From assembly GCA_010093815.1 (NCBI GenBank), contig ML996570.1: a DNA stretch of 64,000 nucleotides, one strand, 5' to 3'. Made by a program: the position numbers and the translations under genes. How positions within the stretch are numbered: the stretch's first letter is position 1; the number at the start of each line of letters is the position of its first letter. Origin of the DNA: Pseudovirgaria hyperparasitica (taxonomy: Eukaryota). Shown here piece by piece: positions 5,295 to 58,770 of the stretch. Under the pieces are notes generated by a model. It searched no databases and had not been told where the DNA came from. It saw nothing but the letters and a program-made list of their open reading frames with translations.

Positions 5295-6258
5295 ATGTCC
5301 AGGAACCCCACCATAAAGCGCATCCGTAGGTCACAACCTATCGTGCTTCAGACTCACAGCTGATGTGGACACAGTCAAGGAAGCTGCCGAGCTCGCGAAT
5401 AATGCATCTGCAGACTTTCACGCGGTACCTATGGATGACAACCTGTTCGATTGGCATTTCACACTACGAGGACCACCCGACCCCTCTCCGTATGCCGAAG
5501 GCATCTATCACGGCCGCATAGTGCTGCCATCGGCATACCCGCACCGCCCTCCCTCTTTTCGCTTTCTCACCCCATCCGGGCGCTTCGAAATCAATCGTGA
5601 AATCTGTTTGAGCATAAGTGGCTTCCATGAGGAGTCATGGCAGCCGGCATGGGGCATAAGGACAGCACTTGTCGCAATACGAAGCTTCATGGACACAGTC
5701 TCTGCAGGCCAGGTTGGTGGGCTAGAGTGTGATGCAAGTACGCGAAAAAGGATGGCAGAGGATTCAAGGAGTTGGAAGTGCCCAGCGTGTGGACATACGA
5801 ATGAGGAGATCATGAAAGAGAGGGAGAAGCTTGCGGGGCCGACTGGGGATCAGGCCAAGAAGGATGATGATGTTGTGCCAGAAGAGCTGAGGCTAGCATA
5901 TCGTGAAGACCTAGGAGCCGACGCGAAGAAGACAGAGTCGAAGGGCAAAGAGAAGGTAACGGAGCCGGAAGCTCCAGCTCCAGCAGCCGTTCCAGCAGAT
6001 TCCTCAATACCACCTACGCAATCCACAGTAGAATCAGCACCTCCATCAAGAATGGAAACTACAAGATCTCCGCCCTCCCTTCAGGCCCGGCCAATCCAAG
6101 TCCCGCCGACCCAGACAACGCATGCCACGACCCAACAACGCCAGGCAGCGCAAGCGACACCGCAAAACGCCAACAGGGCTGTCCCAGCGTGGGTAGACCC
6201 TGCAATATACGCCCTCATAGCCATCCTGGCATATCTGATTCTGAAAAAGATGGGTTGA
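5295..6258 (+). CDS. UBC6: Tail-anchored ubiquitin-conjugating enzyme E2, Ubc6/UBE2J family
   Basis: Intron 5326-5374 joins MSRNPTIKRI-LKEAAEL; motifs DWHFTLRGP and TPSGRFEINREICLSISGFHEESWQPAW (active Cys); C-terminal hydrophobic anchor. Symbol indicates family, orthology not tested. Confidence 0.9.
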
Positions 6259-6938: not shown

Positions 6939-7841
6939 GGTCTGAGGCTAGTCAGGTTTGTGTAACTGTATTCAGGGTCCAGCCAAGAGCTTCACTTTTG
7001 ACCACGAACTTCCACGACAATGTCCTATTGACTGCCTATTTCAGTGTACACTCTCTGAGCAGTGACTGTCATTGGCTGTCGGCTCGCCATGACGTATAGC
7101 ACCCGGTGGGTTTCATGTTTGTCTATTTAAGTATTCAGGGTCCAGCCAAGGGCATCAGTTTTGACCACGAACTTCCACGACAATGTCATATAGACTGCCT
7201 ATTTCAGTGTATATGCTCGAGCAGTGACTGTCATTGGCTATCGGCTGCTACAACGTCTATCACGGGGCGTGTTTAGTATTCAGGGTCCAGCCAAGAGCAT
7301 CACTTTTGACCACGAACTTCTACGATAATGTCCTATAGACTGCCTATTTCAGTGTATATGCTCTAAGCAGTGACTATTATTGGCTGTCGGCTGCTACGAC
7401 GTCTATCACGAGGCGTGTTTAGTATTCAGGGTCCAGCCAAGAGCATCACTTTTGACCACGAACTTCCACGATAAATGTGCTATAGACTGCCTATTTCAGT
7501 GTATATGCTCTGAGCAGTGACTGTCATTGGCTGTCAGCTGCTATGATGTATATTCATAGGGCGTGTTTCAGGTTTGTCAATCAGTATACAGGGTCCAGCC
7601 AAGAGCTTCACTTTTGACCACGAACTTCCACGATAAATGTACTATAGACTGCCTATTTCAGTGTATACGCTCTGAGAGATGGCCGTTATTGGCTGTCAGT
7701 TGCTATGACGTATATTACCGGGCGTGTGTTTCAGATTTGTTTAACAAAGTGAATAGCCACCGAAACAGGAAATCCAATGACCATCATCGTGGAAGTTCGT
7801 GGTCAAAATGTGAAGCTTTTGGACGGACCCTGGCTCAGACC
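6939..7841. mobile_element. Foldback/MITE-like non-autonomous element: five tandem 145-163 bp units plus one inverted partial unit
   Basis: Units starting gtattcagggtccagccaag (or near-identical) at 6968, 7131, 7276, 7422, 7584; reverse-complement copy ~7750-7832; outer 8-bp inverted tips ggtctgag (6939) / ctcagacc (7834). Repeat structure is certain, mobile nature inferred. Confidence 0.55.
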
Positions 7842-8222
7842 TGTTATCACAGTCTGGTATGAGCATTTGGCAGTTAACCATCCTCATGAGTGCCCACGAT
7901 GACTTGTCTCATTTAAGGAGCTATGGATTTTCTTTCCAGTCGTGAAGTTCCAGCCGTGAAGTTCCAATCGTGAAGTCCTTCCTACTAGTCACATAACAGT
8001 AGAAGCAAGCAGGTGGCACAACTTCTAGTGGTAGTCTTGCGCTTGACCGAGACACAAAAATCTCACGGTTGAACAAGATACAAGTGTATCCTTCACGGCG
8101 ACGAGAGCAAGCTGTCACTACGCTAGCTGGTTTGAGTCACAACGTGCCTTGACTGCCGATCGCGTTCTGCTGTCATTTTTGGAAATTCCCTTTATAATTA
8201 ATTTATTCGTACAGAAATTCAA

Positions 8223-8353
8223 GCCCCAGTGGGAGAATAGTCAAGTAGTTTCACGACACCTACCACTGAAGCAAAGGACCAGATGAAGGACCTAAATATC
8301 TGCAGGGGCGCAGAGGCGCATGATCTCCGGTTCGATCCCGGGTATGAGCTTTT
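8223..8353 (+). ncRNA. Putative RNA polymerase III unit with tRNA-like 3' minihelix (orphan tRNA-like RNA or tRNA pseudogene/SINE head)
   Basis: TATA-like tttataattaa at ~8191; A-box-like tgggagaatag at +8; T-arm tccgg-TTCGATC-ccggg with B box ggttcgatccc at 8329; T-run from 8350; no 5' acceptor strand complementary to tatgagc at the expected place. Confidence 0.45.
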
Positions 8354-9145
8354 GTTTTGAGTTTTGACCGCCCGATTTTGGGTAAGACTTTTTTTACTAT
8401 TTTGCTGCTCCTTGTTGCCCTGGCTTGTAGTTTTACACCTTTTGAGTGTACTGTAGGCTCTGTAAAAGATACTTGATGCGTCTGGAATCTAAGGATGCCG
8501 TGTAGATATCTTTAGATAGTGTCATTACATGAAGATGTTTCAGTCCATGAAATCGTGTGCCGGTCCCTTATGAGGGTTCTAGAACCGAGTCCCTGTCTGT
8601 ACAAAGGACTTCTATCGTCTATAATACATGTCGATGCAGGTTCTGCGGCGAGATGAGTCTGGTGAGTCACCTACATGAACATACTAGGACATTGAGCTGC
8701 TCTGCATGCTAGCGTGGCGAAGACGACTGTGACGAAAGTGTTACCAGCTTGGACATTTTGAAAACACCACAAATGGAGAGAGGACATGACGAGTCGCTGT
8801 TCTTTTGCTGGGCAAAAGGCCGCGAGTTCTGCGAGTGCAAAACCCTACACGCCAGCGCAATTTAGTCACACATTACGGAAGGGACATGCTGGGGACATGC
8901 TGAGGACATATATTGAAAGTAATGAAGAGGCGGAGTACAACACGTGGTCAATGTGAAATCATTCCCTGCTCTCTACTGACGTCGTCTTGAGTTGGTTTCA
9001 AATGGCCGGAGTCGACTGAAAAGGGGGAACTTCGAGAACACTCAACAACGTAGAGACTATCATCCTCTTCAGTACCTACGAAAGCCCTAGTGTAGCTTGC
9101 AACATGTTTTTTTAATGCGATAGTGTAGTATCTGTTCAAAATAAC

Positions 9146-10674
9146 TCATCGTTGATGTGAAACTCGTTCTAGCCTATCATCTAAACTCGCATCATGCACT
9201 ACAACTGCCGTCCTTGCCCTCCTTTTCACAACTGCCTGATGCCTTCTCCCCTTTACATGTTTCATCCAATCCTCTTCCGTTACCGATACCGTCCCACACG
9301 CTTCACATGTCTTCCTCTGCCACAAGTCCGGCCTCGTACTCAGATCATAGCTACTTTTCGGGCTCAGCATCTCTGCCGCAGCCTCACCAAGACTAGCCGG
9401 CAATGGCATTTCCTCCACGCCAGCCAGAAACCTCTCTGTAAGCTCTAGTGCAGGTTTCTCTACATTTTCGGAGAAGGTTGATATATCAGATCCATCGAGC
9501 AGATACAATCTTTCAGAGAGATCAGCTGCTTGAAACGCATGCGTGAGTTTGGTTCGTATCCACTTGACCTGACTCTTCGCATACTGTCTCGTGGCAATCT
9601 TGACCAGATCCACGGCTTCAGCTTTTGCTTTCTCTAGCTCTGTGACTGTGGCCGGTGGATCAGCGCGCGTGAGTGCTTGGTACGTCTCGAACTCCTTGTA
9701 TCCAATGGATATCCAGATACCACGCGTACGGTCGACAGTCTCGCCAGCGGCCTGACGAGCAAGGAGATGTGCGTCTAAGGATTGAACTTCAGATAGAAGA
9801 CCAGAGGCGAGCATCTTGTCGACGCGAGCGGAGAGTCGGTCTGGGAGAGTGGTCGGGGGCACGTTAATCCAGAAGACAAGGGGGTCGTATGTCAGGCGTG
9901 CCGCTGGTTTGACAACATCAATATCAGGCAGAGCGTCCTCGTGAGTTGGATCAGAAGCTCTGCGCTGGCGTTGCTCGTCGTATATCTGTGAAGCTGGCCT
10001 GCCGGTTTGCAGGTAGATCTCAAGAGACCGTTGAATTTTGCGGTGGTCGTTTGGATGCCAGCGGTCTGCCATCACGGGGTCTACTTCGCGCAACTTCGCG
10101 AGAATCACGGAGCTTGGTTCGTTGAGAATGGGGTATTTGTCGGCAAGGACGGGGACATGGTCTGGCTTGCGATCTTCTTCTTTGACACCTTGATCGAAAA
10201 CGAGGGACTGGGTGTAGTAATGCGTGCCGCCGACGAGGATCGGGAGACGACCTCGTTGTCTAATATCTTCAATCTACATACTCATCAGTCTACCTTCCAT
10301 GCAAACCAAGACAATAACCTTCATACCACATCCTTCGCCCTCTTTACGAACCGCTCCACTGTCCAGGTATTCTCCTCCAACCCAACCACACCCAACAAAT
10401 GATGCGGCACACCTTTCATCTCCTCTTCAGTCACTTTGTTAGTAATGATTGGAAGTCCGTTATACAGTTGCATCGCATCGCCATTAATAATCTCGCCATT
10501 AAATTTGCGGGCTATCTCAACCGCCAACTGCAGGTGTCAATTGAAGGGCGCGCCTCGGGGTGAGATTGCGGCGCGACTTACCTGCGATTTGCCCGTACCC
10601 GTCGCTCCTACGACGGCGACGAGAGGCTTTCGAGGCAAGCGCGCCATAGTGATGCCTCGAAGGAAGCGCTGCAT
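9146..10674 (-). CDS. MOD5: tRNA dimethylallyltransferase (isopentenyltransferase)
   Basis: P-loop [55 protein letters not shown]-terminal C2H2-type zinc finger; introns 10528-10581 and ~10274-10326. Confidence 0.95.
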
Positions 10675-19824: not shown

Positions 19825-19937
19825 AGTCCCGTGGCGCAGTGGTAGCGCGTCGTTCTTATATTGGCCGGTTTGATCACCACTAATATGGCTTGTTGCAGGC
19901 AATGCGAATGTCGCGGGTTCAATCCCCGCCGGGACTA
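19825..19937 (+). tRNA. tRNA-Ile(TAT) with 41-nt intron (19861-19901)
   Basis: Acceptor agtcccg/cgggact, D arm gcgc-agtggta-gcgc, anticodon TAT at 19857-19859, T arm gcggg-TTCAATC-cccgc, T-rich terminator downstream. Confidence 0.92.
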
Positions 19938-20284: not shown

Positions 20285-21667
20285 CTAATCCCATACGTCA
20301 AAGTAATCTGGTATTTGACTTGGACTTCTCATTCCCCGATGGTATCCGTGCTTCGGCCTTCTTGGCCGAATCGTACTCTGACAACGTGGGCATGCCTTCA
20401 AAACACAGCCCGGACACTGTAATAGATACGTCCAAGTTTCGTAACATCTTGGGCATGCTGCACGACCGTGAACTTTTGGCCACCAGCCCCCATGGTCGCA
20501 AAGATTCTTGCGCGTTCTGTCACCGGATAATGCATCTTCCCATGCGAATGATAGCGCCTCGCGGCGTGCTCTTGCCTGCTGCGCTGCGGCTTCTCGGGCG
20601 CGCTCCTCTTGCTGTTTCCGTTCCCTTTCCAAATGTTCCTCCATTCGTTGTTTTTCTCTTTGTCGCAGTTCTCTCAAATACCGGTCAAACAGCTCCTGTT
20701 CTCTCTCGCGCTGTCTCTTCAGTTCCTGTTCTCTCTCGCGCTGTCTCTTCCGTTCCTGTTCTCGGGCTTTGGCCGCTCTTTCTCTTTCTGCATTCTCCCT
20801 TCGTTGTCTCTCGGCGTTCCCTCTCAGCCGAATCCGTTCCTGGATCACCCGGATCCGCTCCTGGTCTGCACTGTCTGCACGATCAAGTTCCCTCTTCAGA
20901 TTGTCCCGTAGATTCTTTTGTTTATCGATCTCTTCTCGTTTCTGCGTCAGCCACCGCTCTTTCAGGTCCTTTTCGACTCTCCGCTCCTGTCTCTGCCTGT
21001 CCTTGCGTGCTTTTTCCTCCTCGCTTTCTACCCTTGCCTTGTACAGTGGGGATAGCAGCCATGTTGTCCAGCCGTTCTTCTGTGCTTCTGCCGCCGCCTC
21101 AGCTGCCGCGATGCTGTTCAAGTATTTAATCTGGGATTCCAGTTGCCGTATGCTCCTTTGTAGCTCGAAGATTACTGAGTCTAGTGCGGAATCCTGCGCC
21201 AACCAGCGTTCTTTGCGTTCTTGCTGGGCCTTCACGTACGAGGCAATCTGCGCAGCTTCACCGCGGGTCTGCGATCGCGAGGTCTGGGCATGCTGTTGTC
21301 CAGAGCCCGTCCGCTTGATCGAGGAGTAATAGAGACTATCGTATTCTGTGCGTTTGCTAGTGTCCTTTAGTGTTTCGTAGGCCTGTCCGAGCTAATTCAA
21401 ATGAATTAGTGTTCTATTTAGCGAAAGGGGTCTTCCTGGATTAGGAAAGCATGGTCTCTTGGAAAAAGCCATGTATAAACAGTGATAAGTTAAGACTTTT
21501 TCGCTTACTAGCTGGAAAGCTTTAGTAGCATCGCCTTTATTGGGGTTTCGATCCGGGTGTAGTTTGAGCGCCAACCTTTTGTAGGCTTTGATTATCACTT
21601 CGATTGACGCAGCCTCGTCGACTTCCAGGATTCTATAATAGTCCTCTGTGACCGGCACCGGAGCCAT
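20285..21667 (-). CDS. DnaJ-domain protein with long charged coiled coil and C-terminal Cys/His-rich zinc-binding domain
   Basis: DYYRILEV…KLHPDRN J-domain exon 21667-~21509, intron to ~21391, then R/E/Q-rich coil and CDH…CPRC…CPGC…CPRC. Confidence 0.88.
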
Positions 21668-30699: not shown

Positions 30700-31640
30700 G
30701 TGTGTTCTTGTATGTACGTATGTATAGTGTAGTATAGTATAGACAGAGTATAGCAAAACACACACACACGCGTATCATCCTCTATCTAATCCAATCTAAT
30801 CCAATCTAATCGAAATCAACCGCAAGCCAACCCGTCATGAGACACAACACTAAACAAACTGCCTTCCTACTTGTCGTCCAGTACCAGTTGTATATTAGGA
30901 CTACATGCTATCTGCTATATGCTATATGCTATATGCTATATGCTATATGCTATATGCTACATGCTACATGCTATATGCTATATGCTATATGCTATATGCC
31001 ACAGAACATACTCCTTCCTTCCTCCATTCCTCAAACGATCTTCCACTAACATAAAGAGAGACAAAAAAGCCATCCAATCCAATCCAAACAACGAGCCCTG
31101 GACAACTGGAACTATACGTACGTACGTTACGCTTTACTTTATTAAATACTCGAAATACTCCCAACACTCAAAGACCCATACTCATGACCAACCACACTCC
31201 TCCTCCTCCTCCTTCTCCTCCTTCTTCTTCTTCTTTCTTTTGGAGAAAAAAACTCAAAGTATACCCCGAAAATTTGAACCCAAATCCTCCCAACTCAATT
31301 CAACTCAATCCAACTCAATCCAACTCAATCCAATCCAGTCTAATCCAACAAACTAGTCAACCAACTAGCTCAACCAACTAACTCAACTAGCCAGTAACCC
31401 AGCAGCAAACAACGAAACCAAAACCAAAACAAGACAAATGTAAAACAAGACGAAACCAAAACAAGACAAAAGTGAAAAAAAGAAAGAAGAAAAAAACGCC
31501 GTCCGCAATGCCAAAGGAGAGTTATATATATATACCTGTGTATATGAGTATGAATATGTGTATGAGTATATGAATATGAGTATATGTGTATGAGTATGAG
31601 TATGATGACCGATGACCGATGACCGATGCCGATGCTGATA
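30700..31640. repeat. Microsatellite-dense intergenic tract: (GCTATAT)n ~30901-31000, (AACTC/AATCC)n ~31290-31390, TATGAG-like hexamers ~31540-31605, (GATGACC)n ~31604-31630
   Basis: Repeats seen directly between the convergent MHR1 and rhomboid 3' ends. Confidence 0.9.
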
Positions 31641-57489: not shown

Positions 57490-57735
57490 AGACATTGTAG
57501 ACATTGTAGACTGTAGACACAGTACAAATTGTAGATAGATTAGATATATTAGTTATATTAGATATGATAGATATGATAGATATGATAGATATGATAGATA
57601 TGATAGATATGATAGATATGATAGATATGATAGATCTGATAGATATGATAGACATGATAGACGTGATAGACATGATAGACATGATAGATCTAGTAGAAAG
57701 CGTAGACACAGCAGACACAGCAGACACAGCAGATA
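57490..57735. repeat. 9-bp minisatellite family (ATAGATATG)n with variant flanking units
   Basis: About 14 near-perfect units 57560-57690 plus degenerate 9-mers (gacattgta, gcagacaca) on both sides. Confidence 0.92.
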
Positions 57736-57993
57736 TATCAACCAATAAATCACCAACCCGCACCGCAAGCAGCCCTCTCCAAGTACCCTAAAGACAGATA
57801 CACACTATCCAACAACCTCCATTCTTCTATATCCCGCGTCTTAAGCGAGTCCAGAGCAAGACATATAAACATACAATCATACAGTCAAACCCCCTGAATG
57901 ACCCTCCCTCACGACTCCCTCGCTAGAAACGTCTCTCAAAGTCCAAAGCTACCATTGCATACATCCTCATATTTCACACTACTTCCCCTTACC

Positions 57994-58170
57994 TTTCCCT
58001 TCCCTCTATTCCCCTTCCCTCTATTCCCCTTCCCTCTATTCCCCTTCCCTCTATTCCCCTTCCCTCTATTCCCCTTCCCTCTATTCCCCTTCCCTCTATT
58101 CCCCTTCCCTCCATCCCCATCCCCTTCCCCTCCCTCCGTTCCTTCCCCTCCCTCTGTTCCCCTTCCCCAA
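57994..58170. repeat. 15-bp polypyrimidine minisatellite (TTCCCCTTCCCTCTA) x ~7 with degenerate tail
   Basis: Seen directly. Confidence 0.92.
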
Positions 58171-58770
58171 ACCGAAACCTAACCCAAGCTCCAATACCCC
58201 AGAAAGGACTCCCCCCAGCCCCTCCCCTTCCCCCAGCCCGGTCTACTCCACCAGTAATATACCCCAGGTAGTCCGCGAAACCGGGGGCTAGTAAGTGTGA
58301 AACCACCCATAGTATCAGTGCGGGGAGGGGGAAGTGTGGGGTTTATGACGATGGGCTGTTGGAGAATTGTACTTGATATCAGTGGATGAATGGATGAATG
58401 GATGGATGAATGATGTGATGTACCCGGGGTGGTGGCGAGGTCGGGTGATAGAAGGGGGCGAGGATTGAGGATTGGGGGGATGGGAGAGGGGAAGAGGGAA
58501 GAGGGTACGGGTAGGTACTGCGGACGCTGCCTTAGTGCAGATCTGCGATATCAAGGCCGAGGACAGGGACATTAGAGATCACTTTAATGACGCGGGACGG
58601 ATTGTGGTTGATACATGAAACTAGAAGAATGCTCATTCGTGTGGTATATACATGTCCACTTGCATTGGCTGATATTCCCCCGCAAGCACTCCATCTTCGG
58701 CGAGAGCGCCTCGTTATCATGGGTATACTATATGAGTACGGTCAAGGCGGGGGGGGGGGGGGGGACCTAC

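Follow-up and report, generated by a model that had tools for sequence, protein, structure and literature searches.

Genomic context of the element

The DNA analysed here, referred to below as the window, is a stretch of 64,000 nucleotides from Pseudovirgaria hyperparasitica. Within it, a 2.9-kb spacer separates a UBC6-like E2 gene (5365-6258; UQ_con, E = 7.9e-18) from the MOD5 gene, of which one exon, coding for an IPP-transferase, corresponds to a minus-strand ORF at 9146-10108 (Pfam IPPT, E = 1.3e-35). The product of this ORF is 100% identical to the P. hyperparasitica protein named tRNA isopentenyltransferase by NCBI, and the next best match reaches 58% identity. The lineage is therefore isolated, and an analysis of covariation had no close relative available to it.

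The spacer carries an element with several signals typical of RNA polymerase III (Pol III) transcription units. It had originally been predicted to be an orphan gene for a structured RNA of approximately 130 nt, with a closed, non-tRNA 5′ domain joined to a tRNA-like minihelix. The element is located 416 nt 3′ of a tandem/foldback repeat and 796 nt from the MOD5 stop codon, and thus does lie between the foldback element and the 3′ end of MOD5, where the original prediction had placed it.

The neighbouring foldback-like repeat is a tandem array at 6968-7808 with a period of ~162 nt (7130-7727, 4.0 copies, 87% matches), in which 7748-7808 forms an inverted arm facing 6996-7364. This repeat is itself multi-copy in the genome, with summed contig depths in sequencing run X1 of 6562 (7600-7650) and 1228 (7753-7803) versus 343 for unique DNA, and it is also present in runs X3 and X4. 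The DNA between the foldback-like repeat and the element under study is single-copy except for a 14-nt tandem repeat, TTCCAGTCGTGAAG, at 7934-7976 (3.1 copies). Elsewhere in the window, minisatellite arrays are found at 57496-57702, 57964-58171 and 30887-31019, and their periods are 9 nt (TAGATATGA-like), 15 nt (C/T-rich) and 14 nt (CTATATG-like).

tRNA-type motifs of the element

The features of the window copy are collected in Table 1. The TATA-like tract, the canonical T arm with its B box and the downstream T-run that had been noted originally are all present. The A box proposed at that time is only partly evident, in that the T at +8 (8230) and the A at +14 (8236) are found but the D stem is absent. 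A much better A box and D arm is formed by 8238-8257 in sister copies of the element, and this site is mutated in the window copy. The tRNA positions assigned to 8231-8257 represent our own reading by standard numbering.

Table 1. Features of the element copy in the window
Feature	Position	Strand	Basis and remarks
TATA-like tract ctttataa	8190-8197	+	Read in sequence; -33 to -26 from the family 5′ boundary (8223)
Stretch with ≥80% likeness to other genomic loci	8224-8383	+	Contig depth and loose ends
Relic of a tRNA 5′ part	8231-8257	+	Acceptor-like gggagaa (8231-8237), then T8, A9 and D arm/A box (8238-8257)
Equivalent of G18G19, missing in the window copy	8247 (A), 8249 (T)	+	Sequence and sister-copy variants
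Middle region	8263-8303	+	Motif cca..tgaag twice (8263-8271, 8279-8288); peak of the summed depth of the family
Anticodon-arm-like ccaga...tctg	8279-8302	+	Read in sequence
GC hairpin gcgc-agag-gcgc	8308-8319	+	Read in sequence
T arm tccgg/TTCGATC/ccggg	8326-8342	+	Exact B box GGTTCGATCCC at 8329-8339
3′ acceptor-like heptamer tatgagc	8343-8349	+	catgagc in most copies
T-run TTTTGTTTT, putative Pol III terminator	8350-8358	+	Read in sequence
Second, longer T-run (T7), possible back-up terminator	8389-8395	+	Read in sequence; terminator role conjectural

Read from left to right, the unit consists of tRNA parts in tRNA order, stretched by ~70 nt. A leader of 8 nt from the family 5′ boundary (8223/8224) is followed by an acceptor-like heptamer, the D arm with the A box and an anticodon-arm-like stretch, after which come a GC hairpin in place of the variable region, the T arm with the B box, the 3′ heptamer and the T-run. 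The hexamer CTGAAG (8266-8271) presumably resembles the loop of a GAA anticodon. Together with the stretch ccaga...tctg, which we take to be similar to a GAA anticodon arm carrying a short insert at 37/38, it provides a lead towards a tRNA-Phe origin. The element does not form a cloverleaf with a paired 7-bp acceptor stem, given that tatgagc makes at most 3 of 7 pairs with either gggagaa or the more distal gccccag (8223-8229). For gccccag, this agrees with the original prediction. The inserts and the unpaired acceptor imply that the unit cannot make a tRNA.

Additional copies in the genome

Copies of the element were sought by placing the contigs of four public runs (X1-X4) on positions 7600-9100 at ≥80% likeness. 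Runs X1 and X2 comprise genomic contigs and may be the source of the window, and the kind of X3 and X4 is not on record. The summed depths over bins 8212-8262, 8263-8313 and 8314-8364 are 1177, 2950 and 2229 in X1 (flanks 343 and 301), and 1137, 2812 and 1911 in X2 (flanks 296 and 284). Depth over 8212-8364 is approximately 4-9 times that of the single-copy flanks, although summing the depth of contigs does not give an exact number of copies. At 8110-8211 and 8416-9100, depth is at the single-copy level.

The element is therefore multi-copy, and its description as an orphan cannot be maintained: at least four loci besides the window's own, with other flanks, are represented among the contig pieces listed. 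Two contigs, of 14,058 and 19,639 nt, match 8307-8383 with 7 differences, and a third, of 69,693 nt, matches 8297-8359 with 2, before each continues into DNA unlike that of the window. The loose ends listed are located before 8216, 8224, 8258 and 8261, as well as behind 8359 and 8383, and their flanks differ. The copies are thus dispersed and, as expected of a SINE, their flanks are unrelated, although one copy does share upstream sequence. In this sister copy, whose loose end lies before 8216, the 9-mer CCTTTATAA occurs upstream in register, as does TATTC, and an ungapped comparison by eye gives 17 of 30 identical bases. Another copy remains alike past 8359; there, a comparison by eye gives 13 identities in 30 positions, and transitions account for 12 of the 17 mismatches. 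One copy, seen in X2, X3 and X4, has unrelated sequence directly before 8224.

No second copy is present within the 64-kb window, as judged by blastn with word size 7, which returned the self match and 18 matches of ≤29 nt (E ≥ 0.19). A T-arm-like match at 21545-21557 was rejected as unrelated sequence.

In X3 and X4, contigs of 1,221 and 1,451 nt terminate in one sister copy, and the window's own copy is uncovered. Run X3 also has a 308-nt contig (7793-8100, depth 3.1) that is identical to the unique spacer, and nothing over 8110-8211 or 8365-9100. The ratio of X3 to X1 depth varies along the stretch from 0.009 to 0.44. Among runs recorded as RNA, none contains the stretch. Our guess is that X3 and X4 could be RNA of the same strain, and these runs have been used neither for nor against expression.

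Variation among sister copies

At 8247 and 8249, where the window copy has A and T, the majority of the family reads T and G (926 of 1269 depth units in X1, 843 of 1138 in X2). With these two majority bases in place, 8238-8257 reads TAGTCAAGTTGG...A...CGAC, which supplies T8, A9, G10, A14, G18, G19, A21 and a 3-bp D stem. Most sister copies thus have a canonical A box and D arm, and the A and B boxes are in the right order and on the right strand. With respect to an internal Pol III promoter, the B box is exact, and the A box is canonical in sister copies and lacks the GG in the window copy, with a spacing of ~90 nt between the two boxes.

The window copy differs from the family majority at five sites or more. 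It lacks the CTG or TG that the majority carries after 8257 (926 of 1269), has G rather than C at 8277 (majority 1930 of 2983 depth units) and has T rather than C at 8343 (majority 986 of 1286 depth units). The last of these converts a G-U into a G-C pair of the predicted minihelix, a one-sided change. Two changes seen in some sister copies break the T stem, namely C to G at 8327 (306 of 2766) and an additional A after 8341 (353 of 1996), each amounting to approximately one copy-equivalent. Overall, copies differ by 2-8 substitutions per 63-96 nt (3-15%) and by indels (C, TG or CTG after 8256/8257; A after 8341), and the 5′ half is common to fewer copies than the 3′ half. No variants at ≥10% are listed between 8278 and 8326, but this apparent invariance is not secure because a variant of a single copy sits at the 10% threshold in the deepest bin. 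The pattern suits decaying repeats better than a constrained gene family.

Comparison with tRNA genes and known RNA families

A scan against Rfam 15 (4227 models), which had been suggested alongside the original prediction, yields no match for the element at the gathering thresholds or even at E ≤ 10 (queries of 601 nt and 137 nt). The sole match nearby, to CRISPR-DR63 (E = 5.9), is a chance hit. The tRNA model RF00005 (gathering threshold 29 bits) likewise leaves the element unmatched at E ≤ 10, and scores 52 bits for a tRNA elsewhere in the window. No tRNA gene is called at the element by ARAGORN under default settings, with or without introns. Relaxed settings (-ps80 and -ps70) generate models for Gln(ctg) at 8200-8351 and for Lys(ttt), which we rejected as low-threshold artefacts; in the -ps80 model, 70 nt are inserted at position 28/29 and the acceptor contains A-C as well as T-T mismatches. 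A plainly decayed tRNA, named in the original prediction as an outcome that would speak against a novel RNA, is largely what is seen, with tRNA parts in order, inserts and an unpaired acceptor.

Other known RNA types were considered as sources of the 5′ portion. The region around 8236-8260 is reminiscent of the box A region of 5S rRNA, and a 5S-derived head was dropped when no 5S match was obtained at E ≤ 10. A C/D snoRNA in the 5′ domain was also rejected, in that no C box/D box pair is visible by eye at its ends, and inspection of 8223-8315 by eye reveals neither a C/D nor an H/ACA box arrangement. Two 21-mers from the core (8288-8308 and 8305-8325) have 0 matches each in 241 million metagenome records, a search by exact words that misses diverged relatives. 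Among titles and the beginnings of abstracts in the literature on SINEs and tRNA-derived repeats of Dothideomycetes, filamentous fungi and this species, we found no paper that describes the element.

Chance occurrence of the tRNA-type motifs was assessed within the window and in 300 random first-order Markov windows. Two T arms (5-bp stem with a GTTCRANYC loop) occur in the window, one being that of the element and the other that of a real tRNA (19913-19929), and the element is the single case in which a T arm has TTTT within 16 nt. The random windows contain a mean of 0.14 T arms each, and the combination of T arm and T-run was observed in 0 of 300, which indicates that the 3′ end of the element is tRNA-derived. 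The real tRNA is a genuine, 113-nt tRNA-Cys(GCA) gene with an intron at 19825-19937 on the plus strand, recognized by Rfam and, only with the -i option, by ARAGORN. Its flanks consist of gatatta at -35 to -29 and TTTTGTTTTG downstream, and the terminator TTTTGTTTTG is common to this gene and the T-run of the element. Given the T-arm statistics and these tRNA-Cys-like flanks, the 3′ end and flanking signals of the element look like those of a Pol III tRNA-type unit of this genome.

Evaluation of the proposed fold

The complementary blocks on which the original structure was built (gcccc/ggggc, agtgg/ccact and cagat/atctg) are present in the sequence, but the fold that they were proposed to form lacks thermodynamic support. 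The whole unit (8223-8350, 128 nt) has a minimum free energy (MFE) of -34.1 kcal/mol versus a mean of -34.6 for shuffled sequences (z = 0.14), and 112 of 200 shuffles are at least as stable. Similar values are obtained for the 5′ domain alone (8223-8309, 87 nt; z = -0.21, 85 of 200) and for the minihelix part (8310-8350; z = +0.35, 122 of 200). The element therefore lacks an excess fold signal. Moreover, the structure originally drawn, with G8318-A8347 opened, has an energy of -26.6 kcal/mol and falls short of the MFE by 7.5 kcal/mol. Base 8227 is claimed by both the gcccc and the cagtgg stems, and the hairpin at 8308-8319 competes with both gcccc/ggggc and gcgcatg/tatgagc. The MFE structure uses other pairs.

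The pairing of gcgcatg with tatgagc, on which the predicted minihelix depends, involves 6 of 7 positions, with a mismatch between G8318 and A8347. By our own arithmetic, ~1.6 heptamers pairing with tatgagc at ≥6 of 7 positions (G-U allowed) are expected per 120 upstream positions. The acceptor-like pairing is thus at the level of chance and constitutes no evidence for a minihelix. Among the sister copies listed, no compensatory, two-sided stem changes are seen. Neither the closed ~87-nt multibranch domain nor a functional acceptor and T minihelix is borne out by these results.

Possible origins of the element

We judge it moderately probable that 8224-8383 is a decayed copy of a low-copy, dispersed, SINE-like family whose source was a tRNA gene or the Pol III transcript of one. 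Signals of the Pol III type and a 3′ end of tRNA origin are both upheld, and the option of a SINE head, which was left open in the original prediction, comes close to the data. In such a family, a master copy in which both the A box and the B box are intact would bind TFIIIC and would be transcribed by Pol III from approximately 30 bp 3′ of the TATA-like tract to the T-run or T-runs. Its copies would presumably have multiplied through reverse transcription, with duplication of DNA as the less likely route, and would then have decayed. Having lost the GG of the A box and diverged from the family majority, the copy in the window is probably silent or transcribed only weakly, a relic that serves no function itself.

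Some expected marks of a SINE are missing or ambiguous. As a candidate for a target-site duplication, only the trinucleotide aag recurs (8221-8223 and 8384-8386); direct repeats of ≥4 nt were not found flanking the family ends, and the window copy shows no tail that is A-rich or LINE-like. Old SINE insertions can lose both target-site duplications and tail, according to a report on Aspergillus fumigatus (PMC5063351). Further observations count against a simple SINE. The TATA-like 9-mer shared upstream is not predicted by retroposition of a Pol III transcript, and the A and B boxes, 90 nt apart, are more widely spaced than would be expected in a SINE head. In addition, likeness continues past 8359 in one copy, and therefore the true unit may exceed the transcript and be worn by repeat-induced point mutation (RIP). 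The apparent ends of the unit may only mark where identity drops below 80%.

These last points lead to an explanation that we consider unlikely, wherein the tRNA-like stretch is the best-kept part of a longer, older repeat, such as a MITE, a solo LTR, another transposon or a segmental duplication. Such a repeat would have captured or overlapped a tRNA gene, and the ends at 8224 and 8359/8383 would be the points at which identity falls below 80%, possibly through RIP-like decay. The homology upstream of 8216 and that past 8359, where differences are mostly G/A and C/T, are both in accord with this idea, as is a TpA/ApT index of 1.08 in 8001-8500 versus 0.71 for the whole window. The dinucleotide tg (8180-8181) and the pentamer atttt (8175-8179 and 8375-8379) can be read as LTR-like ends. 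However, the would-be LTR terminates in cg rather than ca, one copy remains alike to 8383, beyond that end, and no terminal inverted repeats were found. The single-copy depth on both sides also argues against a longer unit, and the second RIP index (1.10) is not below its usual cut-off of 1.03. Finally, the ordered arrangement of TATA-like tract, A box, B box and T-run on one strand suits a Pol III unit better than a coincidence within some other element.

Distinctly unlikely, in our view, is a family of tRNA pseudogenes generated at the DNA level, in which a tRNA locus was duplicated with its promoter and terminator flanks and without retroposition, the gene having internal insertions and a small duplication. 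This explanation would accommodate the TATA-like homology upstream, which is common to at least one other copy, the match between the flanking signals and those of the real tRNA-Cys gene, and the preserved order of the tRNA parts. Against it stands the copy with unrelated DNA immediately before 8224. Furthermore, the same rearranged body is found on at least three different long contigs, and therefore the rearrangement preceded the spread, as would be the case for a mobile master copy.

There is a small chance that the copies are instead functional Pol III genes, a small family whose RNA of ~130-170 nt would have a structured 5′ domain freed from the tRNA-like minihelix by RNase P or RNase Z. 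In favour of this, T arm, B box and T-run have all been preserved, bin 8263-8313 is the deepest and the overlapping interval 8278-8326 has no listed variant at ≥10%. The copy with the shared TATA-like tract shows better conservation of the element than of its upstream flank, and the change at 8343 strengthens a minihelix pair in most copies. Set against this are the absence of excess fold stability in every part, the energy deficit of the proposed structure, the chance level of the minihelix pairing and the divergence of 3-15% among copies, with indels and T-stem-breaking changes. The apparent invariance in the deepest bin is not secure at a listing threshold of 10%, the core 21-mers are unmatched in the metagenome records, and no compensatory change is found among the copies listed.

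A more elaborate version, to which we assign a slim chance as a whole, envisages ~4-9 Pol III genes forming a lineage-restricted family within an isolated branch of the Dothideomycetes, each producing a transcript that resembles a stretched pre-tRNA, with a ~90-nt non-tRNA domain and a T-arm minihelix. The core at ~8263-8326 would be conserved, the minihelix would recruit TFIIIC and serve as a handle for RNase P and RNase Z, and some copies would keep the TATA-like tract.

A chance assembly of motifs in AT-rich intergenic DNA is scarcely credible. Although each of the stems can arise randomly, as can an isolated T arm (0.14 per random window), a T arm with a T-run appeared in 0 of 300 random windows, and the element is repeated, its sister copies having an A box.

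Relationship to known systems and significance

Known cases in which a tRNA-like element acts as an RNase P/RNase Z handle or as a Pol III promoter include MALAT1 mascRNA, tRNA-snoRNA dicistronic genes, SNR52 and RPR1. The element differs from these in the chance-level pairing of its minihelix and in its lack of a fold signal. It resembles tRNA genes and pseudogenes (RF00005) in its T arm and B box, a discriminator-like base and the T-run, as well as in the D arm and A box of sister copies, and it resembles the tRNA-Cys gene of the window in its upstream TATA-like tract and terminator. Unlike tRNA genes and pseudogenes, it has unpaired acceptor strands, no anticodon arm in register and ~70 extra nucleotides.

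The tRNA-related SINEs of filamentous ascomycetes, among them the Mg-SINE of Magnaporthe, offer the closest parallels to the reading we prefer, that of a SINE-like repeat derived from a tRNA. As described in the A. fumigatus report, tRNA-related SINEs of that species (AfuSINE2) are 140-493 bp long and of low copy number, their A box is more degenerate than their B box and none folds into a cloverleaf (PMC5063351). In its features, the element is like AfuSINE2-type SINEs in being short, of low copy number and located in a gene-rich region, in carrying an internal B box together with a candidate, more degenerate A box, and in forming no cloverleaf. It is unlike them in having neither a target-site duplication nor an A/T-rich or LINE-like tail, and in the position of its B box, ~90 nt after the A box and near the 3′ end of the unit. 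Given this position of the B box, the whole unit is best read as a stretched tRNA rather than a tRNA head joined to an unrelated body.

The importance of the element beyond annotation is small. It does carry the lesson that a novel structured RNA deduced from hand-drawn stems can vanish once controls for copy number and shuffled sequences are applied. Should the minority reading of a functional family prove true, the element would represent a rare tRNA-like processing handle on a family of fungal Pol III RNAs. On the SINE-like interpretation that we favour, the finding would add a low-copy family of tRNA-derived repeats to the genome of an isolated fungus, whose nearest sequenced relative shares 58% identity in MOD5.
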